Below, one piece after another: positions 17,084-58,736 of a stretch of DNA of 64,000 nt (the stretch's first letter is position 1; the number at the start of each line of letters is the position of its first letter). Origin of the DNA: a virus; the IMG/VR virus record IMGVR_UViG_3300027747_000004, positions 1 to 64,000 of that record; one strand, written 5' to 3'. Under the pieces are notes generated by a model. It made no database searches. It was not told where the DNA came from and saw nothing but the letters and a program-made list of their open reading frames with translations. Made by a program: the position numbers and the translations under genes.

Positions 17084-17091
<8 letters not shown>
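15157..17091 (+). CDS. internal virion (ejection) protein with C-terminal xxxGG motifs and a GExV domain
   Basis: Ala-rich helical body; SKTGG, LADGG, FRTGG, then 'EGKGDGTSDDITAMLANGEYVFSADVV'. ATG 15157 preferred over 15109. Confidence 0.7.
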
Positions 17092-40128: not shown

Positions 40129-43035
40129 ATGGCCAAGAGACCCTACCGCGACCCGAAGACCACCAAGATCGAGGACTGGATCTGGCACCCCATGGAAAAC
40201 ATCCGCCAGCAACTCAGCACCCGACGCGAGCTGCCCGAGCACGTGATGCCCTACGCCGAGCACATGCAGCAGATGGCCAGCAAGGCGCAGGCCGGGCAGA
40301 TCAGCCCCCGCGACCTGATCAAAGCCTACACCATCACGCAGGCCAGCATCGGCCGCGGGGGCCTGAGCCACGCCACGGCCACCAAGAACGGCATGAAGCT
40401 GCAAGACACCGGCGAAGAGTTCCGCCCCGAGGGCGTGTTTGCCGAGTGGCTGGGCTCGCCTGAGGGCCAAAAATACTTGGACGACGCCGAGCGGGGCAAG
40501 GTCAACGCCCGGTCAATCCGGGACGTCGTCGCCAAGTTCTCCCCCTTCGGCAAGCAGAACGTGCAGGGCGAGGCCATGGAGTACGCGGCCCAGCACCTGC
40601 CCCAGCAGACCGCGGCGGCCAACGCCGCGCTGACCGGGTCGCTTGAAGACTACCGCAAGTTTGCCCGGGCAATCCACGGCATCAACAGCGCCAAGAGCGG
40701 GTTCATCGGCTCGCTGCTGGGCCGTGGTGACCAGCCCACGCTGGACGCCCGCCAGATCGCCCTGCACTCGCTGTACCACCCGACCAAGGTGGCCCAAAGC
40801 GTGATGGACCGCGGCAACGGCCTGGGCGGCGAGGAGGCGGTGGACCGCCTGACAGCCCGGCACAACGACCTGGGCTACACCATCCCGCCCGAGCTGGCGC
40901 CCTTCGCCCAGCACCTGATCCACCACGACATCTGGGACCAGCGCGGCGAGAACGGCCCGACCAAAACGACGCACGAGGACCTGATCCGGGCCATGCGCGG
41001 CTACGCCAAGGGTGGAGACGTGGAGCCCACCCCCGAGCAGATGCGCGAGATGCTGGCCCAGCACGGCTACATAGAGCACACACCCAAAAAACCTCATGCC
41101 GCCGTTGGCCAGCGCTATGACGTAGACCAGGCATACGGCCTTGCCCCAAAAAACGACGTGGACTTAGAGAAGCACAAGGGCGCTAGTTTGATGGTCATGC
41201 CGTGGGACAGCACCAGCCGCAACGTGCAGGTGCGCAGCATATCCGGCCACGAGCTGCCCGAGCACATTACCACGCACGGCGGCCAGGACTACGCCCGTGA
41301 CCTTGAGCACATCCTGCAGGGCATCGCAGGCGCATCAAACGAGGGGATAGCCAAACGTATTGCTGCCCGCGAAATGCAGGCCCGGATAGAAAATCTCGGC
41401 CAAGGTGGCACCGGTGAGATATTGCACATGCCCATTACCATGGGCGAGCGTGGCGAAGACTTTTCCATGACACCCACCGAGATCCTGCACCAGTTGGTAA
41501 TGCGCGGCATGCTGCCGCCAGAGGAATTGGAGCGCATGAACAACGAAATCCGCGCGCACAAAATAATTTTGAACAAAAAATCCGTCCAACCCTTTGGGGG
41601 TTTTGTTGGCCTAGAGCACCCCGAGTTTGACCAGCAAATAGTCACAGGCAAAGGCGTCGACACGACAGCAGGAAACCTGCGCAAGGCCATCGTAAACCGC
41701 GTTGGCTACCTGAAGCACAACCAAAAGGCGCTGGACTTCAACATTGAAGACCTGGTCAACGCGGTCACCGACCCCACGTTGCGCGGCGTGCCCAAGGGTT
41801 ACATCGGCAACACGGTCATTGGCAGCGACCCCGACCACATGACGCTGACACCGTCCAGCAATAAGGCGTACGACACCAACTTCTCCGGCCAGTACCTGGG
41901 CACGCTTGGCCACAGTTTTCCGGCCGAGGTGTTATTTGAAAAAGTTCTGCAGCAACTCCAGTCAAAGCACACTGGGAAAAAAGGGAATCTTCGTAACATG
42001 GCGTTGGGGGACCTTGAAAAGAGCAAAGCAAACGTATCCCAGATCTTGGACAACGAGACGCTGGACCGCTACGGCAAGTACCTGATGGCGCGCGACAAGA
42101 AGATCCGCACCGGCCATTACGCCGAGGGCGGTGAGGTCAAGAACGACGAGCCCAGCCACGACGAGATGCTGGCGCACATCATGCTCAAGGGCGTCAGCAG
42201 CCTGAAGGACGTCGGGGCCAACGAGGCGCCCAACATGCCGGTCAAGACCTACGTGCCAGCGGGTCCGGGCAAGGGCTTTCCCATCGGTGGCGTAGACTTC
42301 CAGCCCCAGCAGCCCGGCCAGCAGATGCTGCCTGGCCAGCCGCAACAACCTAGCCAACCGCAACAGCCCGGCCAGCCGCAACAGCCCGGCCAGCAAGCAG
42401 CGCCAGCACCACAGGGCCCACAGCAACCCCAGCCGCCCAGCAACATCCTGCAGATGACGCGCCAAGGCCAGACCATGAACGCGATCGCACCGCCCCAGCC
42501 GCAAGCCAAGATGGCAGGCGGCGGATCAACCCCGCCGTCGGTGGAGGAGATGCGCCGGGCCATTGCCAGCGCGGCCACGTCGGCGGGCATGAAGGCGCCC
42601 GTGACTAACACGCGCAATATGATGACCCTGCAGGACACCCACCAGTCGCTGCAGGACAGGATTCGCGGGGGCGCTGCCGACATGCAGAACATGATCGAGT
42701 CCATGCCGTTTAAGTACGACGTGGGGCACGACGTGTTTACCGCCCACAGCGCCAAAAACAACCTGCCACCGTTCAAAGTGATCCGCAGGGCATTGGTGGG
42801 GAATTCCCCCATGCGTGAGGACCACCCAACGCTCGGACCAAACATGGGCAAGTTCATCAAGGACCCGGCAACCGGCAAGACCAAACGCACACCATACGAG
42901 CCGGGCTATGACGTTCGCAGGGAGCACAAAGGCGAGGTGCACAAGATGCGCATCCCCGAGTCCGCAATTGTTGACAAGCTAGCAGGCGGCGGCACGGTCA
43001 AGGACTACATCACCATCACGGAGCGCCCACTATGA
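40129..43035 (+). CDS. large polyvalent protein 1 (HhH-GPD-like module plus unknown modules separated by xxxGG motifs)
   Basis: AGGA RBS before ATG 40129; YAKGG, YAEGG, MAGGG, LAGGG at module boundaries. Confidence 0.7.
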   Translation: MAKRPYRDPKTTKIEDWIWHPMENIRQQLSTRRELPEHVMPYAEHMQQMASKAQAGQISPRDLIKAYTITQASIGRGGLSHATATKNGMKLQDTGEEFRPEGVFAEWLGSPEGQKYLDDAERGKVNARSIRDVVAKFSPFGKQNVQGEAMEYAAQHLPQQTAAANAALTGSLEDYRKFARAIHGINSAKSGFIGSLLGRGDQPTLDARQIALHSLYHPTKVAQSVMDRGNGLGGEEAVDRLTARHNDLGYTIPPELAPFAQHLIHHDIWDQRGENGPTKTTHEDLIRAMRGYAKGGDVEPTPEQMREMLAQHGYIEHTPKKPHAAVGQRYDVDQAYGLAPKNDVDLEKHKGASLMVMPWDSTSRNVQVRSISGHELPEHITTHGGQDYARDLEHILQGIAGASNEGIAKRIAAREMQARIENLGQGGTGEILHMPITMGERGEDFSMTPTEILHQLVMRGMLPPEELERMNNEIRAHKIILNKKSVQPFGGFVGLEHPEFDQQIVTGKGVDTTAGNLRKAIVNRVGYLKHNQKALDFNIEDLVNAVTDPTLRGVPKGYIGNTVIGSDPDHMTLTPSSNKAYDTNFSGQYLGTLGHSFPAEVLFEKVLQQLQSKHTGKKGNLRNMALGDLEKSKANVSQILDNETLDRYGKYLMARDKKIRTGHYAEGGEVKNDEPSHDEMLAHIMLKGVSSLKDVGANEAPNMPVKTYVPAGPGKGFPIGGVDFQPQQPGQQMLPGQPQQPSQPQQPGQPQQPGQQAAPAPQGPQQPQPPSNILQMTRQGQTMNAIAPPQPQAKMAGGGSTPPSVEEMRRAIASAATSAGMKAPVTNTRNMMTLQDTHQSLQDRIRGGAADMQNMIESMPFKYDVGHDVFTAHSAKNNLPPFKVIRRALVGNSPMREDHPTLGPNMGKFIKDPATGKTKRTPYEPGYDVRREHKGEVHKMRIPESAIVDKLAGGGTVKDYITITERPL

Positions 43036-46000
43036 GCGGAATGTACTCACCCATTAACCGCGCTGCGGAGTCCATCACCCGCCCCAAGGGCACCGGTGCT
43101 GAGTACATGGCCGAGCTGCAGAAGAAGCCCGGCTACAAGCCCGCTGAGGCGCAGGACCGCGACCTGCAGGCGCTCATGGCGCTGCCCCAGATGGCGCGTG
43201 CGGCCTTCATGGAAAAGCTCAAAGCGCAAAAGAACAAGTACCCGCTCAAGCAGCGAGAGCTGACCGGCAGACAGACGCACCACGAGGACTACACCCTACC
43301 CGGTGGTGAAAACTACCGCGAGATCCTGCTGCACACACCAATGCCCGAGGGCGGAGGCTTCCTCGGCGTGCCGCACCACTTTGGCGGCACACCCAATATC
43401 CTTGCCAGCATTCGCGTCAAGGATCGCACCACGCCAGAAGGCAAGAAGATGCTGCACCTTGAGGAGATCCAATCCGACTGGCACCAGCACGGGCGCGAAG
43501 AGGGGTATCGACCCGCAACGTCCGAAGATGATGTTCGCAAAGCATATAACGCTCAACCACACAACGCAGTGCCGTTTGATGAGTTGCTTCCCGCCGACAA
43601 AGCGTACGAAATCCAACAATACGAAAAATCCCAAAAAGGCGTCCCTTACGGCCCCCACGCCAAGGACTGGCACGAATTGGCGCTCAAGGCCATGATCCAG
43701 CACGCCGCCGAGAACGGCTACGACCAGATTGCCATCACGCCCGGCGCGGAGCAGGCCAAGCGGTATGACTTGAGCAAGCACGTTGGACGTATCACGCACA
43801 TGACGCATCACGATGATCCTGATAGCGGCATTTTGTTTGCTTTTGATCCATCTGGTCACCAGATAATAGAAAAACACAACGTGCCCCATTCCCAACTTCC
43901 TGAGTACATTGGCAAAGAAGGGGCGCAAAAATTATTAGGGCAAAAGCCAGATGAACATGGCTACCGTGAATTAAAAGGCCAAAACCTTGAAGTTGGTGGC
44001 GAGGGCATGAAAGGCTTCTACGACCGAATGGTGCCCAGCTTTCTGAACAAGTTCGGCAAGAAGCATGGCGTGCAGGTGCAACCGGGTGCAATTGACACAG
44101 GGGAAAATCCACATGAGGTGGTGATGGATTACTCCGACCCCAAAAATATGTACGCGGTTCGCCCCGAGGGCTCTTCAAACGTGGTGTCACGGCATTTTTC
44201 AATGCACGATGCCTACAAGGCCGCAGCAAAACTTGGGCAGTCCCCACTACACACATTCGACATCACCCCAGCCATGCGCGAGGACGTGCTCAAGAACGGC
44301 ATACCGCGCTACGATAAAGGTGGCGAGGTCAAGCCAACGCACGAACTATTTCACGGAACCAACAAAGAATTCAAAAGTTTTGATAAAGACAAAAGCCATA
44401 TTGTCAATGGTGTATGGCTGACACAGGACAAAAACTACGCAAATTGGATGGCTCGTGAAAGAGCAAAGCAAGAAAAAGGAACTGCCCCAAGGGTATTACG
44501 GGTTAGCGCGTACCACAATAACCCCATGTATTTTGATATTTTGGCAGAAGGCAAAAAAGTTGCGGAACAAATTGGCGAACCAGCACCAAAAAACGCTTAC
44601 GAGGCACAGGAGTTGCTATCGGGGGGAATGGGTTGGGATAATGTCGTTGACAATTTAGTGCATGAAGCTAAAACAAAAAAGCACGATTCCTTAATAATCC
44701 ATAATTTTAATGATAATTGGCACAGCGACCCGAATCAAACCACAACAGCCCATGTAGTGTTTGATCCTAATAAGTTAAAAATAATTGACCAGCAAAAATA
44801 CGCCGAGGGCGGCGTCGTCCACAAATCCGGCGGCGGGTCGATGTACCCAACCATCCAGGAGATGATCCGGCACCTGCAGCAGGCCGGGCGCACGCCCATT
44901 GTGCCCGCACCCAACCGCTGGTTTGCGGATCCGGTAAAGCACCCCTTCCAGCAAAAGATGATCGAGCGCGTGCTGGCGCAGACTGGCCAGGGGCGCGAGG
45001 GTTTCCCGTCGGGCTCTTACATCAACCCGCAGACGGGCGAGCCCATGGACTTTGACATCATGCACGACCTGGGCGTGGCAATCGACCCCGCCACCGGGCG
45101 GCCAATGATGTCGGGCGTCAAGTCGGACCTGACATCCATCGACCCCAAGTACGGATCCATCACCCGGAGCAATTTGGTGCGCAAGGGCCTGTTCAAGCAC
45201 GAGGGCGGCGACGACTTGCTCAAGAACATTGCATTCCTCGCGACGATCGAGAAAGGCGGCAAGGGCCACCACTACGGCCTGTCGACGCACTACGCATCAC
45301 CCGCAGAGCTGGTGAACACAATGACCGGCCAAAACCCAACGCTGCGGCCGCACAGCCGCGGTGACATCTTTGGCGTGGGCGACGAGGTTGGGCGCATTTC
45401 TATCCAGGGCAAACACCACCCGGTCTATGAGAAGTTGCTGGTGGCGCCCACAGGCTCGGACGTGCAGGGCGTGAAGTTGCACAAGGCTAAGGGCGGCAAA
45501 GTTTCCGGTGAAACCAAAGCAGAGTTCATCAGCAAAAGCAAAGTGCCTGACGTGCTGTACCGTGGTGGTATCGGGCACCCAGATATGTCGGAAGACTTTT
45601 TGAAAGGCAAAGCACGGCCAGGTTACTCTACCTTTGCCTCTACGTCTCCGCACGTCGCTGGAAGCTACGCGCATCCTGATTGGGATCAATCGTGGGGTAC
45701 CCAAGACCTGGTCGGCGCAATTGCGCCTATGCACATCAAGGTGCATACGGTGCATGAGTTTCCGGTGACCACCAATAAGCATGGGTCTCGCCAATTTAGC
45801 AAATTTGAGTTTGATCGACGCGCTCAACAACTGGAGCCCGGCCATGCGTTGGTGGCGCGGCAAGTGTTTGACATGGGCCCGCGAGCTAGTGTCAAAACTG
45901 ATCCTGACAAGCTGTACAGTTACCCTAGCGACATATACGCTTGGAACAACGGCACCGAAGTGAAGTCCGCTTTTGAGAAAGCCAAAGGCGGCTCCATCAA

Positions 46001-46070
46001 AGCTAAAGTTACAATGCCGCCCAGTATGGACACGATGCAGTACGAGCTGATCAACAGGAAAGCAAAATAA
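43032..46070 (+). CDS. large polyvalent protein 2 (EEIQSD / GNAT-like module, two ADP-ribosyltransferase-like modules)
   Basis: 'LFHGT...GVWLT...A' and 'LYRG...FASTSPHVAGSYA'; YDKGG, YAEGG, KAKGG x2 boundaries. Confidence 0.7.
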   Translation: MSGMYSPINRAAESITRPKGTGAEYMAELQKKPGYKPAEAQDRDLQALMALPQMARAAFMEKLKAQKNKYPLKQRELTGRQTHHEDYTLPGGENYREILLHTPMPEGGGFLGVPHHFGGTPNILASIRVKDRTTPEGKKMLHLEEIQSDWHQHGREEGYRPATSEDDVRKAYNAQPHNAVPFDELLPADKAYEIQQYEKSQKGVPYGPHAKDWHELALKAMIQHAAENGYDQIAITPGAEQAKRYDLSKHVGRITHMTHHDDPDSGILFAFDPSGHQIIEKHNVPHSQLPEYIGKEGAQKLLGQKPDEHGYRELKGQNLEVGGEGMKGFYDRMVPSFLNKFGKKHGVQVQPGAIDTGENPHEVVMDYSDPKNMYAVRPEGSSNVVSRHFSMHDAYKAAAKLGQSPLHTFDITPAMREDVLKNGIPRYDKGGEVKPTHELFHGTNKEFKSFDKDKSHIVNGVWLTQDKNYANWMARERAKQEKGTAPRVLRVSAYHNNPMYFDILAEGKKVAEQIGEPAPKNAYEAQELLSGGMGWDNVVDNLVHEAKTKKHDSLIIHNFNDNWHSDPNQTTTAHVVFDPNKLKIIDQQKYAEGGVVHKSGGGSMYPTIQEMIRHLQQAGRTPIVPAPNRWFADPVKHPFQQKMIERVLAQTGQGREGFPSGSYINPQTGEPMDFDIMHDLGVAIDPATGRPMMSGVKSDLTSIDPKYGSITRSNLVRKGLFKHEGGDDLLKNIAFLATIEKGGKGHHYGLSTHYASPAELVNTMTGQNPTLRPHSRGDIFGVGDEVGRISIQGKHHPVYEKLLVAPTGSDVQGVKLHKAKGGKVSGETKAEFISKSKVPDVLYRGGIGHPDMSEDFLKGKARPGYSTFASTSPHVAGSYAHPDWDQSWGTQDLVGAIAPMHIKVHTVHEFPVTTNKHGSRQFSKFEFDRRAQQLEPGHALVARQVFDMGPRASVKTDPDKLYSYPSDIYAWNNGTEVKSAFEKAKGGSIKAKVTMPPSMDTMQYELINRKAK

Positions 46071-48706
46071 TGGCCGACACCTACGACAACGGGGACGACG
46101 ACATGGACCCTGAGCTGAACGAAGACGGGTCCGCGGACGTTGAGCTGCCAGAGGACGTGTCTGACGTCACCGAGATGCCCGACGGCTCGGCGGTGGTGCA
46201 CCTGCCGGAGACAACCGGCCCAGAAGAGACGCCCGACTTCTACGCCAACATGGCCGAGGAGATGGACAGCTACGAGCTCAACACGCTCGGCATGCGCTAC
46301 GTCAGCCTGCTGGAGAAGGACAAGAACGCCCGCGAGGAGCGCGACAAGCAGTACGAGGAAGGCCTACGGCGCACTGGCCTAGGCAAGGACGCCCCCGGCG
46401 GTGCCAACTTCCTTGGCGCAAGCCGCGCCGTGCACCCGGTCATGGCCGAGGGCTGCGTTGACTTTGCCAGCCGCGCGATCAAGGAGCTGTTCCCACCAGA
46501 TGGCCCGGTGCGCACTAAGATCATTGGCAAGGTCGACGAGCTTAAGCAAGAGCGCGCCGAGCGCAAGCGCGACTTCTTGAACTGGCAGATTACCGAGCAA
46601 ATCGAAGAGTTCCGCGACGAGCAGGAACAGATGCTCACCCAGCTGCCGCTTGGCGGCTCGCAGTACCTCAAGCTGTGGTACGACGAGCAAAAGAAGCGCC
46701 CGGTCATCGAGTTCCTGCCCATCGACCGCATGATCCTGCCGTTTGCGGCCAGCAACTTCTACACCGCCCAACGCGCGGCCGAGGTGCACGAGATCACCGA
46801 GTGGGAATACGACCGGCGCATCGCCAGCGGCATGTACAAGGACGGCTCGCACGTCACCTCCGGCAACGAGCCCGAGCAGACGCGCGCGCAGAAGGCCAAC
46901 GACAAGATTGAGGGCCGCAAGTTCCAGGACAACGACGACGGCCTGCGCAAGGTGTTCCACATCTATACCTGGCTGGAGCTGGAGGACGACCGGCAATCCA
47001 AGGGCGAGATGGCCCCCTACATCATGATGGTGGACGAGCAGTCCAGCGAGGTGATCGGCCTGTACCGCAACTGGGAAGAGGGCGACGACACGATGACCAA
47101 GCTCGACTGGATCGTCGAGTTCAAGTTCATCCCGTGGCGCGGCGTGTTTGCCATCGGCCTGCCCCACCTGATCGGCGGCCTGAGCGCGGCCCTGACCGGC
47201 TCCCTGCGCGCGCTGCTAGACAGCGCCCACATCAACAACGCGGCGACCATGCTCAAGCTCAAGGGTGCCAAGATCAGCGGCCAGACGCAGCAGATCGAGG
47301 TCACTCAGGTGGCCGAGATCGAGGGCGCGCCCGGCGTAGATGACATCCGCAAGATCGCGATGCCCATGCCCTTCAACCCACCCAGCGAGACGCTATTCAA
47401 GCTGTTGGGCTGGCTGGACAGCGCGGCCAAGGGCGTGGTCACCACGTCCGAGGAGAAGATCGCCGATGTCAATGCTAACGCTCCGGTAGGTACTACCCAA
47501 GCGTTGATTGAGCAGGGCGCTGCCGTCTACTCCGCAATCCACGCGCGCCTGCACCAGTCGCAGGCTCGCCTGATCAAGGTGCTGTGCCGCCTGAACCGCT
47601 GGCACTTCAAGGAAATGCGCAAGGGCGACATGGTCGCGGACCTTGAGATCGAGCGCGAGGACTTCGAGCGCAACACCGACGTCATCCCGGTCAGCGACCC
47701 GCACATCTTTAGCGAAACCCAGCGCATGGCGCAGATGCAGGCCGTGTTGGCCCGCGCGGACGCCAAGCCAGACCTGTACGACGCCAAAGCCGTGGAGGAG
47801 CGTTTCCTCAAGCAGATCAAGATTCCCAACGTCAGCGAGCTGCTCAAGGACGTGCCCGAGCCCGAGCAGCGCACTTTGGCCGACGAGAACGCGGCGATGT
47901 CCATGGGCCACCCGGCGTATGCCTACATGCAGCAGGACCACATCGCGCACATCCAAGGCCACCTAATGTTTGGCCTAGACCCGAGCTTTGGCGGCAACCC
48001 GCTAATCGCGCCAAACTACCAGCCCAACGCGATTGAACACATCAAGCAGCACATTACGCTGTGGTACCTCAACCGCATGAACGGCTACGTCATTAACCTG
48101 CGCGGCGGCAAGCCGGTGGACGACTATGAAAATCCGCACCTGACCGCCACCATCGACAAACTGTACGCCACCGTCGGCGAGCACGTCGCGTTGGACGGCC
48201 AGATGGTGTTCCAGCAGATCCTGCCGCAACTTCAACAGATGCAGCAGGCAATGCAACAGAACAAGCCACAACCCCAACTGCCGCCCGATGCCCAGGTGGT
48301 CAAGGACACCGCGATGGCCGAGACCCAGCGCAAAGCGGCCAAGGACCAGCAGGAGATGCAGCTCGCCCAAGCCAAGCTGCAGGACAGCCAACAGCGCACC
48401 CAGGCCGAGATGCAGGCCAACGCGCAGAAGGCCCAGCAGGACACGCAGGTCAACATGCAGAAGGCCCAGCAGGACGCCCAGCTCAAGATGCAGGACCTCC
48501 AGGCAACGTCTCAGGCCAAGCTGCAGGACACGCAGGTCGATATCCAAGCACGCGAGCAAGAGTCCATGCGCAATGCGCAACTACAATTGGAACTAGAGCG
48601 CATGCACGACCAGACGCAGATTGACATTACAAACGCAAAGTTAACCCACGAAACCATACAGAGTATGGTCCAACCCCAAGGAGCTCCAGATGGCAACCTC
48701 GAATAA
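46070..48706 (+). CDS. portal protein with long Gln-rich C-terminal helix
   Basis: 878 aa; position in the head module; 'PVGTTQALIEQG...SAIHARLH', coiled-coil tail. Confidence 0.85.
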   Translation: MADTYDNGDDDMDPELNEDGSADVELPEDVSDVTEMPDGSAVVHLPETTGPEETPDFYANMAEEMDSYELNTLGMRYVSLLEKDKNAREERDKQYEEGLRRTGLGKDAPGGANFLGASRAVHPVMAEGCVDFASRAIKELFPPDGPVRTKIIGKVDELKQERAERKRDFLNWQITEQIEEFRDEQEQMLTQLPLGGSQYLKLWYDEQKKRPVIEFLPIDRMILPFAASNFYTAQRAAEVHEITEWEYDRRIASGMYKDGSHVTSGNEPEQTRAQKANDKIEGRKFQDNDDGLRKVFHIYTWLELEDDRQSKGEMAPYIMMVDEQSSEVIGLYRNWEEGDDTMTKLDWIVEFKFIPWRGVFAIGLPHLIGGLSAALTGSLRALLDSAHINNAATMLKLKGAKISGQTQQIEVTQVAEIEGAPGVDDIRKIAMPMPFNPPSETLFKLLGWLDSAAKGVVTTSEEKIADVNANAPVGTTQALIEQGAAVYSAIHARLHQSQARLIKVLCRLNRWHFKEMRKGDMVADLEIEREDFERNTDVIPVSDPHIFSETQRMAQMQAVLARADAKPDLYDAKAVEERFLKQIKIPNVSELLKDVPEPEQRTLADENAAMSMGHPAYAYMQQDHIAHIQGHLMFGLDPSFGGNPLIAPNYQPNAIEHIKQHITLWYLNRMNGYVINLRGGKPVDDYENPHLTATIDKLYATVGEHVALDGQMVFQQILPQLQQMQQAMQQNKPQPQLPPDAQVVKDTAMAETQRKAAKDQQEMQLAQAKLQDSQQRTQAEMQANAQKAQQDTQVNMQKAQQDAQLKMQDLQATSQAKLQDTQVDIQAREQESMRNAQLQLELERMHDQTQIDITNAKLTHETIQSMVQPQGAPDGNLE

Positions 48707-48845
48707 CTCTCAGACCGGCGAGCTGGTCAAGCAACACCACCGCCTGGCCATGGGTGAGAAGCTCAACGGCCAGAGCCTGCAGCCCAAGGGCGGCACCAGC
48801 AAGCCCGCTGGCGGCTTGAGCGCGCTGGCCAAGAAGAATAAGTGA
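48690..48845 (+). CDS. 51-aa basic protein (not in ORF track)
   Basis: AAGGAG RBS; MATSNNSQTGELVKQHHRLAMGE...AKKNK. Confidence 0.6.
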   Translation: MATSNNSQTGELVKQHHRLAMGEKLNGQSLQPKGGTSKPAGGLSALAKKNK

Positions 48846-49012
48846 TCTCTGAACTTATTCACCAGATCCAGGTCAGGCAGGCGGAGCTTCGCCTGGCGCT
48901 GGTTCAAAACCCCGTGGGCGACCACGCTACATACACACGCATCGTTGGTGAGTACCAGGGCCTGCAATGGGTAATGGACGCACTAAACCAAAAACTCGCT
49001 GAGAACGAATAA
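48842..49012 (+). CDS. 56-aa helical head-module protein (not in ORF track)
   Basis: GTGA overlap; 'YTRIVGEYQGL' motif. Confidence 0.6.
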   Translation: MISELIHQIQVRQAELRLALVQNPVGDHATYTRIVGEYQGLQWVMDALNQKLAENE

Positions 49013-49089
49013 GGCAGCAATGCCCCAAGCCGCGCTGAGATATGCGCATTTTCAAACCTGAAATATGGTTTTTGTCGATAGGAGTGAGT

Positions 49090-49548
49090 ATGAGCGAGAA
49101 AGAAAAGATACCTACCATTGGTGGTGTCCAACAAGAGTCCGACCCAACTGAGCTGGCGTGGGCATTTCCAGACGTTTTACCCGGGCAAGCCCCGCTAGGT
49201 GGCCGCGTCATTGTCCAACTTCGCCGCATCAAGAAAAATGCCGGAAAGATTATCCTGGTCGAGGAGACCAAGGAGAATGAGAAGTGGAACAACATGATCG
49301 GCAGGGTGGTCGCGATTGGTCCTTTGGCCTACCGCAACCGCGACACCATGCAGGTGTGGCCCGAAGGAAGTTGGGCTGAGATCGGTGACTACGTGCGCGT
49401 GCCTCGGTGGGGCGGGGATCGCTGGGAGCGACCCGTGCTTAACGAAGAAAACGGCGACCTGAACCCGGTCCTGTTCATGACAATCAACGACCACGAGGTG
49501 ATTGCGAAGGTCACTGACGACCCGTTGTCATTTAAAGCCTACGTTTAA
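49090..49548 (+). CDS. GroES-like co-chaperonin
   Basis: 'PLGGRVIV', 'GKIIL', 'GRVVAIGP', 'GDYV..PRWGG', 'INDHEVIA'. Confidence 0.85.
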   Translation: MSEKEKIPTIGGVQQESDPTELAWAFPDVLPGQAPLGGRVIVQLRRIKKNAGKIILVEETKENEKWNNMIGRVVAIGPLAYRNRDTMQVWPEGSWAEIGDYVRVPRWGGDRWERPVLNEENGDLNPVLFMTINDHEVIAKVTDDPLSFKAYV

Positions 49549-49557
49549 GGAAATACC

Positions 49558-50526
49558 ATGGTTACAAATACCGAAAAAGATGATGTTTTGCACGTGCAGG
49601 AAGGCCAAGACGGCACCGCCACGGTAGAACTGCCTGAGGGCATCCTGCCCCAAGACGACAACAACGACGATAAAACGCCCAATAACGCCCAATCCGACGA
49701 CGGAAGCGATGACGACCACCCGGACGACAGCGACGCGGTGCGCGCAGCACGCCGCGCACGCCGCCGGTCCAAGAAAGACCTCATCCGCAAGACCAACGAA
49801 GAGAAGGATATTCGCCTGCAGGCCATCCAACGCGAGAACGAGGAGCTGCGAAACCGGCTTTCGCGCGTGGAACAGAAGACTCAGGCTTACGACGTGGGCC
49901 GAATTGAGAAGGCAATTGAGGACCAGCAGGTGCGCATGGAGTATGCGCGCATGAAATTGGCCGAGGCAACCGGTTCTGGTGACGGCGACGGCGCTGTAAA
50001 GGCGCAGGAACTGCTTTACGAGGCCCGAGACAGCCTTCGGCAGCTCGATGCCCTGCGCAGGCAGGCAAATCAGCCCGCGCAACCCGCGGCTCCGGCCGTA
50101 GATTACACCGTGCAACGCCACGCGACCACCTGGATTGAGCGAAACTCATGGTACAAACCCGATTTATCGGATACTGACAGCAAAATCGCAAAAGTAATCG
50201 ACGAAGACCTCGTAAAAGAGGGCTGGAACCCCGGAACTGACGATTATTGGGACGAATTAGACTCCCGCTTGCAAAAAAGATTGCCGCATCGCTATAATGA
50301 TTCGTCAGATAAACGTGATACCGACCGACGAACACCAAGGAACACCGTGGGAAGCTCAGGACGTGAAGCATCAGCCGCATACGGGGGCACAAACCGCACC
50401 TTTACCCTCACCGCTGAACAAGTGCGTGCGATGAAGGACGCGGGTATGTGGGATAACCCCGAAAAACGCGCAAAGATGATCAAACGATACGCAGCAGAAT
50501 CCCGTAACAATTCCCGGAGTAACTAA
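49558..50526 (+). CDS. capsid scaffolding protein
   Basis: acidic N-terminus, coiled coil, 'W...NSWY', C-terminal 'LTAEQV..M...G' before the capsid genes. Confidence 0.7.
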   Translation: MVTNTEKDDVLHVQEGQDGTATVELPEGILPQDDNNDDKTPNNAQSDDGSDDDHPDDSDAVRAARRARRRSKKDLIRKTNEEKDIRLQAIQRENEELRNRLSRVEQKTQAYDVGRIEKAIEDQQVRMEYARMKLAEATGSGDGDGAVKAQELLYEARDSLRQLDALRRQANQPAQPAAPAVDYTVQRHATTWIERNSWYKPDLSDTDSKIAKVIDEDLVKEGWNPGTDDYWDELDSRLQKRLPHRYNDSSDKRDTDRRTPRNTVGSSGREASAAYGGTNRTFTLTAEQVRAMKDAGMWDNPEKRAKMIKRYAAESRNNSRSN

Positions 50527-50528
50527 TC

Positions 50529-51077
50529 ATGACCGAATCACGTCTCAAAAAATCTCTCAATGCTGGTGGACGCCAAGATCGCGCAAGCGAGGACGCAACC
50601 CGCGCAGCACCCGAAGATAAGTTCATTTCAACGCAGGAACGTCGCAAGATGTGGAGCGAAGAGTGGACGCAATCAGCACTGCCCAAACTGCCCACATTTG
50701 ACGGGTGGCATCTTTGCTGGCTTTCAACATCCAACAGCTACGACTCCATTGATAAGCGGATTCGCCTAGGGTACGTTCCAGTTAAATCTGAAGAGTTACC
50801 GGGTTATGAAGACTATCGTGTAAAGGCCGGCGAGCATGTTGGTTACATTTCCTGTAACGAGATGTTGCTGTTCAAGTTACCCATGGACGTTTACCAAGAG
50901 ATCATGATGCACATGCACCACGATCAACCCATCGAAGAGGCGGAGAAAATTCGCGTCCAGGTGGAACAACTCCAAGGTGCACGCGACAGCAATGGTAAAT
51001 CGTTGGTAGGCGTTGAAGGCGAAGGATTGGGCAATTTTGATAGGCAACCAAACAAACTACCGGTATTTGCCGGTTAA
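50529..51077 (+). CDS. conserved head-module protein
   Basis: GGAG RBS; 'GWHLCW...RLGYVPV...LLFKLP'. Confidence 0.65.
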   Translation: MTESRLKKSLNAGGRQDRASEDATRAAPEDKFISTQERRKMWSEEWTQSALPKLPTFDGWHLCWLSTSNSYDSIDKRIRLGYVPVKSEELPGYEDYRVKAGEHVGYISCNEMLLFKLPMDVYQEIMMHMHHDQPIEEAEKIRVQVEQLQGARDSNGKSLVGVEGEGLGNFDRQPNKLPVFAG

Positions 51078-51090
51078 CTAAGGAGTTAAT

Positions 51091-51690
51091 ATGAGTGCTA
51101 CCTCTGCTCCGTTTGGCCTTCGCCCCGCGTTTCACCCTTCGGGTCTGGATCGCGCACAAGCGCTGGCTGGCGGTATTACATCGGGTTATGCAACCCAAAT
51201 CTTGAAGGGCCAACCCGTTGCCTACTCGGCTTCGGCAGGTGTCATCGTTCCCCTCACTACCGCCCCTGCTGCTGGCTCTGCCGTAGCCTGGTCCGGTGCC
51301 TTTGCTGGCGTTGAGTGGACCGATACCACCGGTCGTCGTCGCGTGTCCAACTACTGGCCCGCAAGCACCGCGTACCAAACTGGTTCGTGCGTCGCTTATT
51401 TCTACAACGACAACAACATCGTTTACGAAATCCAAGCAGACGGTTCGATGGCTCAAACCACAATTGGTAACGAGTACAACTTCACCAATACCACCTCTGG
51501 TTCTTCCACAACCGGTCTGTCGCAATGCACTTTGGGTGCTTCGACTGCTGCTGGTAACGGTACCCAAGGCCAAATGCGCGTGGTTGATCTTAGTCAAGCG
51601 GTGGATAACGCGTGGGGCGACGCCTACACCGTTGTTCGTGTCGTTAACGCGCAGTCGCAGTTCTTCGGCGCTTTCACTGCTATCGCATAA
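51091..51690 (+). CDS. minor capsid / decoration protein
   Basis: 'APFGLRP', 'GAFAGVEWTD', 'VYEIQAD'; directly upstream of the MCP. Confidence 0.65.
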   Translation: MSATSAPFGLRPAFHPSGLDRAQALAGGITSGYATQILKGQPVAYSASAGVIVPLTTAPAAGSAVAWSGAFAGVEWTDTTGRRRVSNYWPASTAYQTGSCVAYFYNDNNIVYEIQADGSMAQTTIGNEYNFTNTTSGSSTTGLSQCTLGASTAAGNGTQGQMRVVDLSQAVDNAWGDAYTVVRVVNAQSQFFGAFTAIA

Positions 51691-51702
51691 GGAGAATAAA
51701 TA

Positions 51703-52617
51703 ATGGCTGCACCAATGAGAAGTACGGACTTTCGTTCAATCGTCGAACCGATTTTGAACGAATGCTTCGACGGCGTTTACGACCAACGCGCTGATGAATG
51801 GTCTCGTGTCTTCCGCGAGGAAGACGGTATCCCCCGCAACTACCACGAAGAACCCGTCCTTTACGGTTTCGGCGCGGCACCCCAACTGCCTGACGGCACC
51901 CCGGTGACGTACCAACAAGGTGGCGTGTTGTTCCTGAAGCGCTATGTCTACAAGGTCTACGGTCTGGCTTTTGCCTTGACCAAGGTCCTGGTGGAAGACG
52001 GCGACCACATCCGCTTGGGCCAAGTGTACGCACGTCATTTGGCACAGTCGCTAGTGGAGACCAAGGAACTGCTGTCCGCTAACGTCTTGAACGTGGCATT
52101 CAACAGCTCCTACCCCGGTGGCGACGGCGTGCCTTTGATCAGCACCGCCCACCCCATCGTGAACGGTACCTTCAGCAACCAGTTGGCCACCGCCGCTGTT
52201 CTGTCCCAGACATCTCTTGAGCAGATGCTGATCCAGATCCGCCAGGCAGTGGACAACAACGGCAAACGTATCCGCTTGGTGCCACGTCAGTTGGTCGTTG
52301 CCCCCGGCAACGTGTTCCAAGCTGAGGTGCTGCTGAAGTCGGTCCTGCGCACCGGCAACGCCAACAACGACATCAACCCGGTGAAATCCATCGGCTTGTT
52401 GGATGAGGGCGCTGCCGTTCTGTCTCGCTTGACCAGCGCCAACGCATGGTGGGTCCAGACCGATGCACCCGAGGGCTTCAAGCTCTTGATGCGTCGTCGT
52501 CTGGAAAAGACCATGGAAGGCGACTTCGAGACCGACTCGATGCGCTACAAGGCTACCGAGCGTTATGATGTGGGCTTCACTGACCCCCGTTGCGCTTACG
52601 GCACACCTGGTATCTAA
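51703..52617 (+). CDS. major capsid protein (HK97 fold)
   Basis: AAGGAG RBS; 'GDGVPLISTAHP', 'PRQLVVAP', 'DFETDSMRYKATERY..G..DPR..YG'; terminator follows. Confidence 0.88.
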   Translation: MAAPMRSTDFRSIVEPILNECFDGVYDQRADEWSRVFREEDGIPRNYHEEPVLYGFGAAPQLPDGTPVTYQQGGVLFLKRYVYKVYGLAFALTKVLVEDGDHIRLGQVYARHLAQSLVETKELLSANVLNVAFNSSYPGGDGVPLISTAHPIVNGTFSNQLATAAVLSQTSLEQMLIQIRQAVDNNGKRIRLVPRQLVVAPGNVFQAEVLLKSVLRTGNANNDINPVKSIGLLDEGAAVLSRLTSANAWWVQTDAPEGFKLLMRRRLEKTMEGDFETDSMRYKATERYDVGFTDPRCAYGTPGI

Positions 52618-52633
52618 TACCAGCAAAGGCCTT

Positions 52634-52665
52634 GGCGGGGGGCCTTAATCCCCCGCCCCATTTTT
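52634..52665 (+). terminator. rho-independent terminator after the MCP gene
   Basis: GGCGGGGG...CCCCCGCC stem plus T-run. Confidence 0.65.
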
Positions 52666-52696
52666 AACATCGGTCAAACTTTTCAAGGAGCAGACC

Positions 52697-53947
52697 ATGC
52701 CTCAATTCGCAGATGACATCTTTCTGGGCGGTAACAACGGCCAGACCTACATGGGCACCGGCAACTACCCTGCCACGTCCGTATTTACCGGCCGTATTGC
52801 TACGACCACCCTTACCGTATATTCGACCCAGTCCGGTGACCCTTTGGTAGTTGGCCAGTACATTACCGGCTCTAGCGTAACCGCCAACTCCTACATCACC
52901 GCTGACCTCGGACAGGATAGCTCTGGTCGCAATACTTATACCCTGTCTCAGTCATCTACCGTGTCGTCCAACACAACTATGACGGCCGCTGGCAACGCCT
53001 TGCTGGGCGATCCTTCGCCGATGTCTTTGGGCGTTGGTCCTTTGGGCCGCATCTACGTGTTTGACACCGTGCCCCAGACCCTGCAGGCCGCAAACATCGC
53101 TGCATCGCAAACTCAAACTGCTGCAGGCGCGTTGACCCTGACTGCCGGTACCTCGGCTCGATCTGTGACCCGCAGCGATGGCACCACGGTGATTCAGTTG
53201 GACGTTCCTCGTGCAACCAGCGTCACGACCGGTACAGCAACCGGAACGGCTTTGGCTGGCGTGGCCACGACTGGCACCGGCGGCCAGATCTCGTTCACGT
53301 CTAATACCAGCGTGTACACCGGCCAGTACGTGACCGTGTCTGGCACCGCAGGCGGTACCGGTTCGATTACTGGCTACAGCAACCCTACGACCTACATCCT
53401 GTCTGCCGTAACCGCTACTACCGCGACCCTGTTGACCACCGCAAGCGGTGCTGTTGCATCTACCGCGGGTACGATTACTGGCCTGACCTTTACCCTGGGC
53501 GCGGCTCCCCGCGCTATGACGGTTGCGGGCTACGACTACTACGGCCAGGCCATGAGCGAGGTTATCACCAGCAGCTCTTCGGTCAGCACCGCAGTCAGCG
53601 GCAAGAAAGCGTTCTACCAGATCTCTTCTATCACCAGCGCAGGTGCAACCGGAACTGCGGTAACCGCAGGAACCACCGACGTGATTGGTTTGCCAGTCCG
53701 CGTGACGGACGCAGGCTACGTGATCAAGGTGGGCTGGAACAACGCCCTGCTGCAGAATGCTGGTACCTTCACGGCCGCCGACATGACATTGCCAGCTACC
53801 ACTACCACAGGTGACGTGCGCGGCACATTCTTGCCTACCACAGCCTCTGATGGCACCAAGCGTTTGGTCATGTCCATCGCTGTGCCCGGTATCGCAGTCG
53901 GACCCAATGCAACCCGCACTGGTGCCCTTGGTGTAACCCAAGCCTAA
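52697..53947 (+). CDS. virion structural / decoration protein with inserted beta domains
   Basis: AAGGAG RBS; Thr-rich; shares an inserted domain with the nozzle. Confidence 0.65.
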   Translation: MPQFADDIFLGGNNGQTYMGTGNYPATSVFTGRIATTTLTVYSTQSGDPLVVGQYITGSSVTANSYITADLGQDSSGRNTYTLSQSSTVSSNTTMTAAGNALLGDPSPMSLGVGPLGRIYVFDTVPQTLQAANIAASQTQTAAGALTLTAGTSARSVTRSDGTTVIQLDVPRATSVTTGTATGTALAGVATTGTGGQISFTSNTSVYTGQYVTVSGTAGGTGSITGYSNPTTYILSAVTATTATLLTTASGAVASTAGTITGLTFTLGAAPRAMTVAGYDYYGQAMSEVITSSSSVSTAVSGKKAFYQISSITSAGATGTAVTAGTTDVIGLPVRVTDAGYVIKVGWNNALLQNAGTFTAADMTLPATTTTGDVRGTFLPTTASDGTKRLVMSIAVPGIAVGPNATRTGALGVTQA

Positions 53948-53960
53948 GGAGTGAAATACC

Positions 53961-55517
53961 ATGGCAACAAAGAAATCTAGCGGCGGTTTCGCCCAGATGC
54001 CTAAGATGATGACCAATGAGCCCTCGGCCATTCTGAAGCTGAAAAAAGGTGGCCACGTAGCTTCGGCTCACAAGGACGAGCATGGCCACACCAACATGAA
54101 GGGTGATGCCTTCAAGGCCAAGTACGCCATGGACAAGGCAGAAGATGGCGCGGCTCCCAAAAAGCCGTCCATGGCCGAACGTCGCAAAGCGATGTCCGGT
54201 GCCCTGCTTAACTCCAAGAAGGGTGGCAAAGTTGCAAAGCATGAAGATGCCGCGCAGGACCGCGCCATGATCAAGAAGGCCCTGGCAGGCAAGAAGTTTG
54301 CTGCTGGCGGCACCATTAAGGGTAATGCTGGCAAGTTTGCTAAGACCAAAGTCGTTGACGGTGACAAAAAAGACACCGCCAAGGGCACCGGTGTTGTGAA
54401 GATGGGCAAGCCCGCTGGTTACAAAACCGGCGGAACCATTGAAGGCAACGCTGGCAAGTTTGTCAAGACCAAAGTGGTTGGTGGCGACAAGACCGACAAA
54501 GCACACGGTACCAAGGGTATCAAAGAGGGCCAGCCTGCTGGTTTCAAAAAGGGCGGCAAGATTGGTTGGGAAAATCGCCCAGCCGATGATGGCGACCATT
54601 TTGACCCGGCTCATGGTACTGGTGGCGTGCGCGAAGGCAACGCTGGCGGCTACAAAAAAGGCGGTGCTGCAAAAAAGCATTTTGCCACGGGGGGCAGCGT
54701 TAATGATGCTGGCCGCGCCGTGGCAATGCCCCGCAAACCTGTGTCTCGTCCCGTAGCAAACAGCTTGCAATCTGGCACCTTCAAAAAAGGTGGCAAGGTC
54801 AAGAAGTATGCTGATGGCGGTAATGTTAGTGGTGGCATGGGCGGCACGGGTGGTACTACGCCGATGGATTACGCAATATCATCAAACCAATCTGCGTCAG
54901 TGCCGGGCGCACCTATAGGTGCAACTTTTGATGGCCCGGCACCGATGAATCCTTTTGGAGGCATGAATCCCAACATCGGCAAACCCGGCGCAACAATCAT
55001 GCCAACCATGGGAACAACTTCGCCAGTTCCCGCTGACCTGCAACAACAAGGACAGCAAGCGGCAATGCAGAAAGCGGCAATGCAGCAAGCGGCAATGCAG
55101 CAACCACCTATGAGTCAGCAGCAGCTAATGCAGCGTGCCCCAATGGGTGGCTTTGGTGGTATGCGCCCCCCAATGGGCGGAATGCGTCCTCCGATGGGTA
55201 ACATGCGTCCAATGCCGGTTGCCTACAATCCGAACGGCGCTACCAAGCTGTACAAAAAAGGCGGTAAGGTCAAGAAATTCGACATCGGTGGAAGCACTGG
55301 CAACGACATTCAAGATCTGTCCAATGGCGCGTATGCTGGAACCTACAAGAACCAGCGTGATGAAAACGAACGCGACCGAGAAGCCATCTTGGGGGCACCA
55401 GGAAGGGCGTATGATGCTGTCAAACGTCTGCTTGGAGGAAAGCCTGGCGCGGGAGCCGGTCGTGGGATGGTGAACCCGCCTATGGCCAAAAAACGCGGTG
55501 GCGGCGCTAAGTGCTAA
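53961..55517 (+). CDS. basic repeat protein with about 12 xxxGG motifs (putative core polyprotein)
   Basis: LKKGG, SKKGG, FAAGG, YKTGG, FKKGG x2, YKKGG x2, FATGG, YADGG, FDIGG, KKRGG. Confidence 0.75.
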   Translation: MATKKSSGGFAQMPKMMTNEPSAILKLKKGGHVASAHKDEHGHTNMKGDAFKAKYAMDKAEDGAAPKKPSMAERRKAMSGALLNSKKGGKVAKHEDAAQDRAMIKKALAGKKFAAGGTIKGNAGKFAKTKVVDGDKKDTAKGTGVVKMGKPAGYKTGGTIEGNAGKFVKTKVVGGDKTDKAHGTKGIKEGQPAGFKKGGKIGWENRPADDGDHFDPAHGTGGVREGNAGGYKKGGAAKKHFATGGSVNDAGRAVAMPRKPVSRPVANSLQSGTFKKGGKVKKYADGGNVSGGMGGTGGTTPMDYAISSNQSASVPGAPIGATFDGPAPMNPFGGMNPNIGKPGATIMPTMGTTSPVPADLQQQGQQAAMQKAAMQQAAMQQPPMSQQQLMQRAPMGGFGGMRPPMGGMRPPMGNMRPMPVAYNPNGATKLYKKGGKVKKFDIGGSTGNDIQDLSNGAYAGTYKNQRDENERDREAILGAPGRAYDAVKRLLGGKPGAGAGRGMVNPPMAKKRGGGAKC

Positions 55518-58190: not shown

Positions 58191-58736
58191 ATGCCACTAG
58201 TCAAAAGCAAATCAAAAGAAGCGTTCAGCAAAAACATTTCTGCAGAAATGAAAGCTGGCAAGCCGCAAAAGCAAGCGGTAGCCATTGCCTACTCTGTTAA
58301 GAATGCTGTTGGCAAAAAGTCTGGTGGCTTGTGGGATAACATTCACGCTAAGCAAGAGCGCATTAAAAATGGATCTGGCGAGCGTATGCGCAAGCCCGGC
58401 TCAAAAGGCGCGCCAACCGCTGCCGACTTTAAAGCATCAGCTAAGCCTGCCAAAATGAAAAACGGCGGCGACCCTGTGCTGTCTGTTAGCCGCGGTGAAA
58501 AGTTGCCTACAAGCCAAGGCGCAGGTTTGACGCAAAAAGGACGTGACAAGTTTAACCGCGCAACTGGTAGCAACCTTAAGGCTCCGCAGGCAAAAGGCTC
58601 CAGACATGACTCATTTTGCGCAAGAATGAGTGGCATGCCTGGGCCTATGAAAGATGATAAAGGCCGCCCAACACGCAAAGCCGCGTCGCTAAAACGCTGG
58701 CATTGCGCTACAGGCGGCACAGTTAAAAACTACTAG
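58191..58736 (+). CDS. basic protein with xxxGG motifs; C-terminal part homologous to 2191-2583
   Basis: KKSGG, MKNGG, CATGG; 'NIHAKQERI..GSGE.MRK.GSKGAPTA', 'SFCARM'. Confidence 0.7.
   Translation: MPLVKSKSKEAFSKNISAEMKAGKPQKQAVAIAYSVKNAVGKKSGGLWDNIHAKQERIKNGSGERMRKPGSKGAPTAADFKASAKPAKMKNGGDPVLSVSRGEKLPTSQGAGLTQKGRDKFNRATGSNLKAPQAKGSRHDSFCARMSGMPGPMKDDKGRPTRKAASLKRWHCATGGTVKNY

Follow-up and report, generated by a model that had tools for sequence, protein, structure and literature searches.

A seven-residue Gly-Gly motif at the module joints and ends of head-module proteins in an uncultured phage

Why should non-homologous proteins of one virus repeat the same short Gly-Gly peptide, and what is the peptide for? 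The question is raised by the first 64,000 nucleotides of the IMG/VR virus record IMGVR_UViG_3300027747_000004 (the window), in which the pattern [FYMLK][AKD]xGG recurs in two very large proteins encoded upstream of the portal gene, in a Lys/Gly-rich protein and in several small proteins. A preliminary description, made from the letters of the window, had proposed a genome-wide system of di-glycine polyprotein processing or virion loading. We find that the motif is a selected short linear peptide of head-module proteins, marking the joints between modules and the ends of proteins, and we tentatively favor its use as a cargo tag that would be bound and not cut. The window covers the initial 64 kb of a contig of 110,994 bp, which consists of two diverged, fully syntenic phage genomes of ∼55.4 kb each, arranged in tandem, head to tail. 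Throughout, [FYMLK][AKD]xGG is termed the strict pattern; its first residue is position 0 and the extended form adds Val or Ile at position +6. Nearly all copies fall in a pair of mosaic polyvalent proteins encoded upstream of the portal gene, in the Lys/Gly-rich protein and in small proteins of the DUF6321 type. The principal carriers in the window are as follows.

40129..43035, + strand: polyvalent protein 1; the reading frame is open from a GTG at 40033 and the likely start is the ATG at 40129; motifs YAKGG (41002–41016), YAEGG (42118–42132), MAGGG (42511–42525) and LAGGG (42979–42993).
43032..46070, + strand: polyvalent protein 2, with an N-terminal module (residues 1–426), an ART-PolyVal domain (438–588) and two further modules; motifs YDKGG (44310–44324), YAEGG (44799–44813), KAKGG (45483–45497) and KAKGG (45978–45992).
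53961..55517, + strand: Lys/Gly-rich basic protein of 518 residues; 11 motif copies, starting at 54039, 54297, 54420, 54543, 54651, 54681, 54780, 54807, 55251, 55278 and 55488.
1792..2181, + strand: protein of 129 residues with a PHROG 'virion structural protein' N-terminus; MADGG, MAQGG and FKKGG in its low-complexity tail.
2191..2583, + strand: small two-module protein, with phrog_16028 (residues 1–48), MKNGG at residue 47 and DUF6321 (65–125).
58191..58736, + strand: counterpart of 2191–2583 in the second genome, 68% identical, with one extra N-terminal module.

By the strict pattern the window holds 27 copies, distributed over open reading frames (ORFs) that are named here by their first position: three in 1792, one in 2191, one in 15109/15157, four each in 40129 and 43032, 11 in 53961, two in 58191 and one in 60576. 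The earlier tally was of about 30 copies in seven late ORFs. Its figures for 1792 and 2191 stand; 53961 has 11 copies and not about 12, 58191 has two together with a C-terminal CATGG, and the three copies ascribed to 15157 reduce to one (LADGG), since SKTGG and FRTGG break the pattern. The positions reported for 40129 (41002, 42118, 42511 and 42979) all coincide exactly with the start of a motif, and so do four of the five reported for 43032 (44310, 44799, 45483 and 45978); the fifth, 44823, is an off-pattern KSGGG. Enrichment was measured against residue shuffles within each protein (116 ORFs of the contig, 2000 shuffles). The whole contig contains 44 strict copies, with 12.4 ± 3.6 expected, and none of the 2000 shuffles reaches 44, so the proposed enrichment over shuffled sequences holds; the extended form occurs 20 times, with 1.0 expected. 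The individually significant ORFs are, in the window, 40033 (the longer frame of protein 1; four copies observed, 0.42 expected), 43032 (four, 0.49 expected) and 53961 (11, 1.27 expected) and, outside it, 109198 (ten, 0.55 expected) and 103774 (three, 0.13 expected). In the second genome, a 265-residue counterpart of the basic protein has ten copies and a 113-residue protein encoded after the portal has three. The terminase, portal, capsid and replication proteins have no copy at all; the preliminary description had judged by eye that the motif is not enriched in them. Its term 'genome-wide' is inflated by the two-phage contig: because of the join, ORFs 1792 and 2191 sit in one genome and 58191 in the other, and the term spans two phages.

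The relatives of this phage are uncultured phages of ∼53–58 kb, MW202545 (Manatee Spring), Caulobacter phage RW, Roseobacter phages CRP-901 and CRP-902 and the HTVC023P-type pelagiphages. In all, 80 related loci were fetched around the portal gene, with 138 polyvalent ORFs. The proteins encoded between the terminase and the portal in these loci contain 400 copies, with 52 expected, and the basic-protein family contains 281, with 22 expected. In controls in which the pattern itself was scrambled, the forward pattern (382 copies versus 48 expected in the polyvalent proteins and 1146 versus 98 in the basic family) stands above every scrambled version. The portal, terminase, capsid, 416-residue and GroES-like proteins of the relatives have almost no copies. 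An apparent avoidance of the motif in shell and motor proteins (seven copies versus 28 expected) was dropped, as scrambled patterns gave 0–42 copies versus ∼27 expected in the same phylogenetically redundant families.

The copies share the consensus Phi-[A/K]-x-G-G-x-[V/I], in which Phi is Tyr, Phe, Met, Leu or Lys and almost never Ile or Val. Although the search pattern does not extend to position +6, Val or Ile stands there in 70% of 220 non-redundant contexts, in agreement with the earlier remark that the motif is often followed by x-V/I. With G-G-x-[VI] as the sole constraint, Ala or Lys occupies position 1 in 84–97% of cases and position 0 is Tyr, Lys, Met, Leu or Phe in the polyvalent proteins and Phe, Tyr or Leu in the basic family, with neither Ile nor Val among its twelve commonest residues. 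Pro, Lys, Gly, Glu and Ala are frequent in the flanks, and positions +5 and +7 are mostly Ser, Ala, Lys or Glu. Over 38 copies from the main carrier ORFs the motif codons vary (TAC/TAT, GCC/GCT/GCA and GGC/GGT/GGA/GGG), which places selection on the peptide and not on a DNA site; a DNA-level recombination signal was rejected because the codons of the copies differ. Only GGA and GGG are under-used at the first glycine, which we take to reflect avoidance of G runs. SEA-type autoproteolysis between Gly and Ser was set aside, as Ser follows the Gly-Gly pair in only 24% of copies, and so was the idea that position 0 forms an N-degron, for which the chain would have to be cut before Phi.

The location of the motif with respect to folded structure is clearest in the two polyvalent proteins. 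Protein 1 consists of three folded modules and one long Pro/Gln-rich connector. Its AlphaFold model (56-row alignment; mean predicted local distance difference test, pLDDT, of 67.9; model residue = ORF residue − 32) has folded blocks at model residues 27–291, 330–661 and 834–950. The motifs (model residues 292, 664, 795 and 951) all start or lie within stretches where pLDDT falls below 50: three of them open the low-confidence segments 292–329, 662–679 and 953–968, and the copy at 795 lies inside segment 778–803. All four are thus placed in disordered linkers at or after folded modules. Homology blocks of unequal depth along protein 1 change at about residues 325, 695 and 830. The first module (40129–41001) is predicted to be all-helical and has a weak Foldseek match to HhH-GPD 8-oxoguanine DNA glycosylases (E = 0.02, template modeling score of 0.58 on the target).

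In protein 2, the match to ART-PolyVal (PF18760, residues 438–588, E = 3.7e-9, 37.9 bits versus a cut-off of 31.2) fills the gap between the motifs at residues 427 and 590, and homology to the widespread N-terminal module stops at residues 429–436 in most of 39 relatives. The start codon of protein 2 overlaps the stop codon of protein 1 (ATGA), with a GGAG 9 nt upstream; the border between the two genes sits inside a linker, just after a tag. Protein 1 ends with the sequence ITERPL (43011–43035), which in relatives occurs exclusively at C-termini (48 versus two). We rejected this tail as a C-terminal docking peptide: it is the in-frame reading of the GGAG ribosome-binding site and the ATGA overlap, and because it encodes these elements its conservation is explained at the DNA level.

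The same arrangement is seen statistically across the 138 polyvalent ORFs, where 34% of homology breakpoints lie within five residues of a motif, versus 3.9% at random. Once duplicates are removed, 203 of the 630 breakpoint clusters are found within ten residues of a motif (7% expected), and 78% of the 279 internal motifs coincide with a breakpoint. Polyvalent architectures in the 80 relatives range from 480 to 1843 residues with free combination of modules. Pfam domains in relatives include PF18760 ART-PolyVal, PF02195, PF14284 and PF00583. Many of these proteins have one copy 20–30 residues from the N-terminus. At the other end, the last copy lies within 15 residues of the C-terminus in 37% of multi-copy proteins (11% at random), and C-terminal copies are found 2–35 residues from the end of the protein. 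AlphaFold pLDDT, Pfam boundaries and homology breakpoints agree in placing the motif between recognizable domains, where the preliminary description had put it. Overall, a copy either follows directly on a folded module, in disordered sequence, or comes no more than ∼30 residues from one end of a protein. The tag is common to non-homologous proteins, short, located in low-pLDDT sequence and over-represented near C-termini, and it is also internal and repeated.

The basic protein carries the tag in a non-modular setting. It has a conserved 31-residue N-terminal leader ending LKLKKGG, a C-terminus KKRGGGAKC and a composition of 17.6% Gly and 12.7% Lys. Its family comprises 3803 clusters at E <= 1e-3 among 8000 candidates scored, none of them named, on contigs of up to ∼57 kb; among cultured phages, only MW202545 has a relative. 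The 120 members that were fetched have 7–12 copies each, often in pairs 9–10 residues apart, and a net charge of ∼+0.09 per residue. An alignment of 99 sequences, which are 56–81% identical to the copy in the window, has 31 invariant columns, and every motif Gly-Gly is among them. A Met/Pro/Gln-rich insert in the protein of the window is flanked by two copies with 21 of 24 nucleotides identical. AlphaFold, run with the family alignment, gave a mean pLDDT of 53.5 and no strands, and a profile search found no relative in the PDB. The description that fits these predictions best is a conserved intrinsically disordered protein with short linear motifs as its conserved elements.

The two DUF6321 (PF19846) proteins score 62.5 bits (2191–2583) and 73.4 bits (58191–58736) versus a cut-off of 28.5. 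In the latter, KKSGG and MKNGG stand before successive modules and the chain ends CATGGTVKNY; in conserved DUF6321 copies, Pro follows the Gly-Gly pair. Two further tag-like sequences were observed. A small ORF after the portal (48740–48895, + strand; MATSNN...HHRLAMGEK...PKGG...PAGG...) resembles the N-terminus of the tagged 113-residue protein of the second genome and has degenerate tags. The C-termini of a 660-residue and a 503-residue protein (window 16700–17091 and contig 73300–73644, respectively) share the segment [FL]AxGG ... G-x-G-D-G-x-S-D-D-I-x-A-M-L-A-x-G-E-Y-V, which we take to resemble a segment conserved at the C-terminus of siphovirus tape-measure proteins; the phage RW homologue terminates in YMDGGRV.

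Outside this group of phages, the motif is enriched in a protein that has been shown experimentally to be virion cargo. Gp45, or cargo protein C1, of the cultured Bacteroides phage crAss001 (MH675552, 16988–19516) has five strict copies, with 0.6 expected, starting at residues 17, 260, 329, 559 and 825 of 842, and enrichment is also seen in its homologues from crAss002, DAC17 and LMMB; nine other crAss001 virion proteins have no copy. In the electron cryomicroscopy structure, gp45 residues 214–245 were located in the tail barrel and residues 425–552 on the portal wing, ∼420 Å apart, and the intervening chain was said to bridge the two (Bayfield et al., 2023; PMC10172136). The copy at 260 comes 15 residues after the first of these structured segments and the copy at 559 seven residues after the second, and the copies at 260 and 329 lie inside the proposed 179-residue bridge. 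Gp45 thus has the same motif close to both termini, 13 residues short of the C-terminal end, as well as behind the tail-barrel helix and the portal-bound domain. It differs from the carriers in the window in that no sequence homology to them was found, in belonging to another phage order with another host and in docking by a folded domain. Neither the motif nor cleavage is mentioned in that study, in which 'cleav' and 'glycine' have no occurrences (Bayfield et al., 2023; PMC10172136).

The genes around the carriers follow the order large terminase (38630), the two ∼1000-residue proteins (40033/40129 and 43032), portal (46070), GroES-like protein (49042), scaffold-like protein (49558), 182-residue and 199-residue proteins, Mu gpT-like capsid protein (51703), 416-residue protein and Lys/Gly-rich protein (53961). 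The core head genes (49042..52617, + strand), assigned with Pfam and PHROG, lack the motif and are listed below with the portal.

46070..48706, + strand: portal; phrog_1216, E = 4e-17; no motif.
49042–49548, + strand: GroES-like protein; Pfam Cpn10, E = 1.5e-4; no Ser, His or Cys among its conserved residues.
49558–50526, + strand: scaffold-like protein with an acidic N-terminus and a coiled coil.
50529–51077, + strand: protein of 182 residues; no invariant Cys, His or Ser.
51091–51690, + strand: cement-like protein of 199 residues; two members of its family weakly match Phage_cement_2.
51703–52617, + strand: Mu gpT-like major capsid protein.

The portal shares 63% identity with the 'head to tail connecting protein' of MW202545, is highly conserved in 52 relatives and is a candidate reader of the tag. 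The GroES-like gene is kept in Caulobacter phage RW, Roseobacter phage CRP-902 and Pelagibacter phage HTVC027P, and its product reads KKNAGKIILV at the position of the GroEL-binding mobile loop of GroES. In many relatives (loci L022, L031–L033, L042, L044 and L069–L084) the scaffold-like protein has one motif (e.g. EELLADGGEVD), at residues 30–49 of its acidic N-terminal arm; the scaffold-like protein of the window has lost it. The portal-adjacent ORF has a conserved C-terminal tail (45918..46067, + strand), in which a motif is followed by KEKVT(V/I)SPxxDxMxYEL and then by a basic end. In an alignment of 48 distinct tails, M40 and E43 are invariant and V31, D38 and L44 are conserved in at least 90%; the tail helix is kept even where the preceding Gly-Gly copy is absent, and MW202545 has the same tail. 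A short helix of the form P-[ST]-x-[DE]-x-M-x-x-x-[LI] follows several motif copies, and the tail helix is one version of it. The portal-adjacent helix and its Lys-rich end are a candidate docking element for the portal or the scaffold. The tagged proteins are most likely packed inside the head of this podovirus-like phage, as suggested by the position of the polyvalent genes, which are translationally coupled between the terminase and the portal, by their ART-PolyVal content and by analogy.

The structure of the contig itself bears on how these genes are counted. A 127 bp terminal direct repeat (window 1–127 = contig 110868–110994) indicates that it was assembled as a circle. Orthologues of the genes at 1–55.5 kb are found at 55.5–111 kb with 35–92% protein identity, and the joins, near window position 55,500 and at the contig ends, both lie inside a highly similar gene for an 875-residue virion protein. 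The tandem is likely to be an assembly cross-over between two co-occurring strains and not a real 111 kb genome. Elsewhere in the window, a gene for a Mom-family protein (PF25680, E = 1e-33; 23703–24389, − strand) adjoins genes for an SNF2-like helicase and a family-A polymerase, and this neighborhood suggests DNA modification.

A protease or a reader for the tag was then sought. Pfam and PHROG scans of ∼45 ORFs and modules (head, tail, replication and polyvalent), covering ORFs of ∼100 residues or more and a minority of those of the second genome, returned no peptidase family, which agrees with the earlier statement that no classical prohead protease is recognizable; no gene for a cysteine protease, of clan CE or any other, was recognized in the scanned ORFs. 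The Pfam domains precomputed for 120 relatives that have the same connector are ART-PolyVal, ParB, PcfJ, GDSL and GNAT, again with no peptidase. Profile searches of the PDB were empty for the 182-residue, 199-residue, basic and N-terminal polyvalent families, the ESM Atlas yielded matches only to unnamed clusters, and Foldseek on protein 1 gave the weak glycosylase-like match alone. The carrier proteins are absent from Caulobacter phage RW and Roseobacter phage CRP-902, and the ART module has no relative in cultured phages. In phage RW the polyvalent proteins, the basic protein and the motif are all missing, and the set of head genes is the same, the capsid protein being 77% identical. MW202545 has a polyvalent protein with four copies and with no BLAST-detectable module in common with the polyvalent proteins of the window, so no shared embedded protease module was detected.

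The explanation that we favor, and hold tentatively, is that the motif is a non-covalent cargo tag, one per module, that is also an in-frame swap joint. A conserved part of the procapsid (the portal, the shell interior or the core of the scaffold) would bind the tag non-covalently during head assembly; every module, whatever enzyme it carried, would be co-packaged in this way, as would the multivalent basic protein, and the same tag at every joint would double as an in-frame swap joint. The identity of the tag at every joint would explain why modules are exchanged exactly at tags. We prefer this explanation because no enzyme was found, because many copies lie where a cut achieves nothing and because the copies in the basic protein are multivalent and paired; copies near C-termini fit a tag better than a separation site, since a cut there releases almost nothing. 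Several results weigh against it. No reader of the tag was found, and we infer both that one exists and that it binds non-covalently; as the motif-less phage RW has the same head genes, no head gene co-occurs with the tag. The location of the tagged proteins in the virion is likewise putative. A 1431-residue polyvalent protein of the second genome (contig 96973–101268) has no copy and ends in a different C-terminal tail, although that genome does encode its other tagged proteins; polyvalent proteins can therefore do without the tag. No enrichment was found in T7 gp6.7, gp7.3 and gp13–gp16 or in the virion RNA polymerase and other virion proteins of N4, which makes the tag widespread but not universal. 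Finally, the motif stretches of gp45 are not among the parts resolved by electron cryomicroscopy (PMC10172136), so the structure does not show stable binding in the mature virion.

Proteolytic maturation is a serious, if somewhat less likely, alternative to the cargo tag. A Gly-Gly-directed protease, either encoded by the phage and of novel fold or supplied by the host, would cut at or after the Gly-Gly pair inside the prohead, freeing effector modules, trimming N-terminal leaders and C-terminal tails and chopping the basic protein into DNA-neutralizing peptides, about ten of them, small and basic. The copies lie in exposed disordered linkers after domains, 20–30 residues from N-termini and 2–35 from C-termini, a layout resembling that of propeptides and ubiquitin-like precursors; seven residues are conserved, as for protease subsites; and the scaffold-like proteins of relatives hold one site near the N-terminus. 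A cut at residues 260 and 329 of gp45 would remove the difficulty of bridging ∼420 Å. Gly-Gly sites are also used by adenain, by pS273R of African swine fever virus (ASFV), by coronavirus PLpro and by ubiquitin-like proteases. However, no peptidase family was recognized in the scanned ORFs of either genome or among the Pfam domains of the relatives' polyvalent proteins, the small head proteins lack a conserved catalytic set of Ser, Cys and His, RW has the same head genes and no motif, and MW202545 is tagged and has no detectable shared module. The analogy with processing in adenovirus and ASFV that the preliminary description drew fails in register by one residue, with Phi at P5 and Ala or Lys at P4, as well as in the lack of a protease gene among those scanned; the hydrophobic residue is one position further from the Gly-Gly pair than in the sites of adenain and PLpro and in double-glycine leaders. 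The Pro after the pair in conserved DUF6321 copies and the copies 2–4 residues from a C-terminus, which would release nothing useful, also speak against cleavage. That a single type of Gly-Gly-specific maturation protease, of novel fold or recruited from the host, is common to podovirus-like phages as unlike as the present freshwater clade and the Crassvirales seems to us about as probable as proteolytic maturation itself. A passive hinge is less probable still. Here the motif would have no reader, being a flexible, protease-resistant linker inherited with cassettes and kept as a recombination or swap joint because exchange between copies gives in-frame mosaics that work, as with the pre-toxin peptides VENN and DPxGL of polymorphic toxins. 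This fits the 78% of internal copies on homology breakpoints, the free combination of modules in proteins of 480–1843 residues and the insert of the basic protein between two nearly identical stretches of DNA. Yet the codons of the copies differ, with shared DNA amounting at most to ∼15 nt of partial identity; a hinge has no need of Phi at position 0, of Ala or Lys at position 1, of Val or Ile at +6 or of the exclusion of Ile and Val at position 0; copies at the extreme ends of proteins join nothing; and cassette exchange cannot explain the non-modular basic family, in which every Gly-Gly is kept in 99 sequences. We regard as very improbable a chaperonin handle, in which the peptide, as a mimic of the GroES mobile loop (...A-G-G-I-V-L...), would attach to host GroEL together with the phage GroES-like protein. 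The phage does have a GroES-like gene, with KKNAGKIILV at the mobile-loop position, and the motif shares G-G-x-V with the GroES loop; but the GroEL-contacting hydrophobic triplet is absent, +5 and +7 being mostly Ser, Ala, Lys or Glu, the gene also occurs in motif-less relatives and carriers of 1000–1800 residues are too large for the chaperonin cage. A compositional artefact of Gly/Lys-rich low-complexity sequence might be suspected from the richest carrier, in which some scrambled patterns are over-represented too, but it is refuted: shuffles that preserve composition always fall short of the observed counts, the scrambled controls all stay below the forward pattern, and Val or Ile at +6, the invariant columns and the copies at domain edges of polyvalent proteins of ordinary composition have no place in it.

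Returning to the cargo tag, its likeness to known systems is partial in each case. Adenain requires Met, Ile or Leu at P4 and cleaves (M/I/L)-x-G-G-x after the second glycine. The sites of adenain and pS273R resemble the motif in their Gly-Gly core after a hydrophobic residue and in their occurrence in internal or core proteins of double-stranded DNA viruses, including small basic DNA-associated ones; unlike them, the motif has Ala or Lys at P4 and a hydrophobic residue or Lys, not Ile or Val, at P5, and no clan CE protease was found in the scans. The capsid targeting sequence of T4 internal proteins, which is removed by the gp21 protease, and the cargo-loading peptides of encapsulins are short, terminal and portable and direct unrelated proteins into an HK97-fold shell. 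The motif is likewise a short disordered peptide on unrelated proteins and at protein ends; those signals, however, occur once per protein, at one terminus, and are unrelated in sequence, whereas the motif follows every module, with up to 12 copies per protein. The junction peptides of polymorphic toxins (VENN in CdiA and DPxGL in Rhs proteins, the latter part of an autoprotease) also bound exchangeable modules and coincide with breakpoints, but they mark a single border, between a constant body and a variable tip, and the motif marks every module border and a non-modular protein. The carriers themselves have the hallmarks of phage-type polyvalent proteins, with several unrelated domains per polypeptide, a mosaic build, ART-PolyVal and a place beside head genes. 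Such proteins are thought to travel with the DNA, and the release of their modules by proteolysis, through embedded zincin-like, assemblin-like or Lon peptidase domains, has been raised (Iyer et al., 2017; PMC5512222). They differ from the present carriers in that no such peptidase domain was found here and in that the tag is also on a non-modular disordered basic protein and on small proteins. No junction peptide is described in that work, in which 'linker' and 'glycine' have no occurrences (Iyer et al., 2017; PMC5512222). Polyvalent and cargo proteins are known; of a seven-residue junction and terminal tag shared between cargo proteins and a disordered basic protein, no description was found in Iyer et al. 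(2017), in Bayfield et al. (2023) or in a full-text literature search.

If the motif were the site of a maturation protease, strings of effectors would become individual injected enzymes and a disordered precursor would become about ten basic DNA-packing peptides, a bacterial-virus counterpart of the maturation of adenovirus core proteins that would also explain the presence of gp45 in both the tail and the capsid. Polyvalent and cargo proteins are the main route by which many phages deliver anti-defense and takeover enzymes with their DNA, and one seven-residue tag at every joint offers a mutable handle on how the modules are addressed, held or released. Thousands of uncultured phages conserve the tag, and the experimentally tractable cargo protein of crAss001 has it as well. 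It marks natural sites of module exchange and could help to predict module borders in unannotated giant phage proteins.

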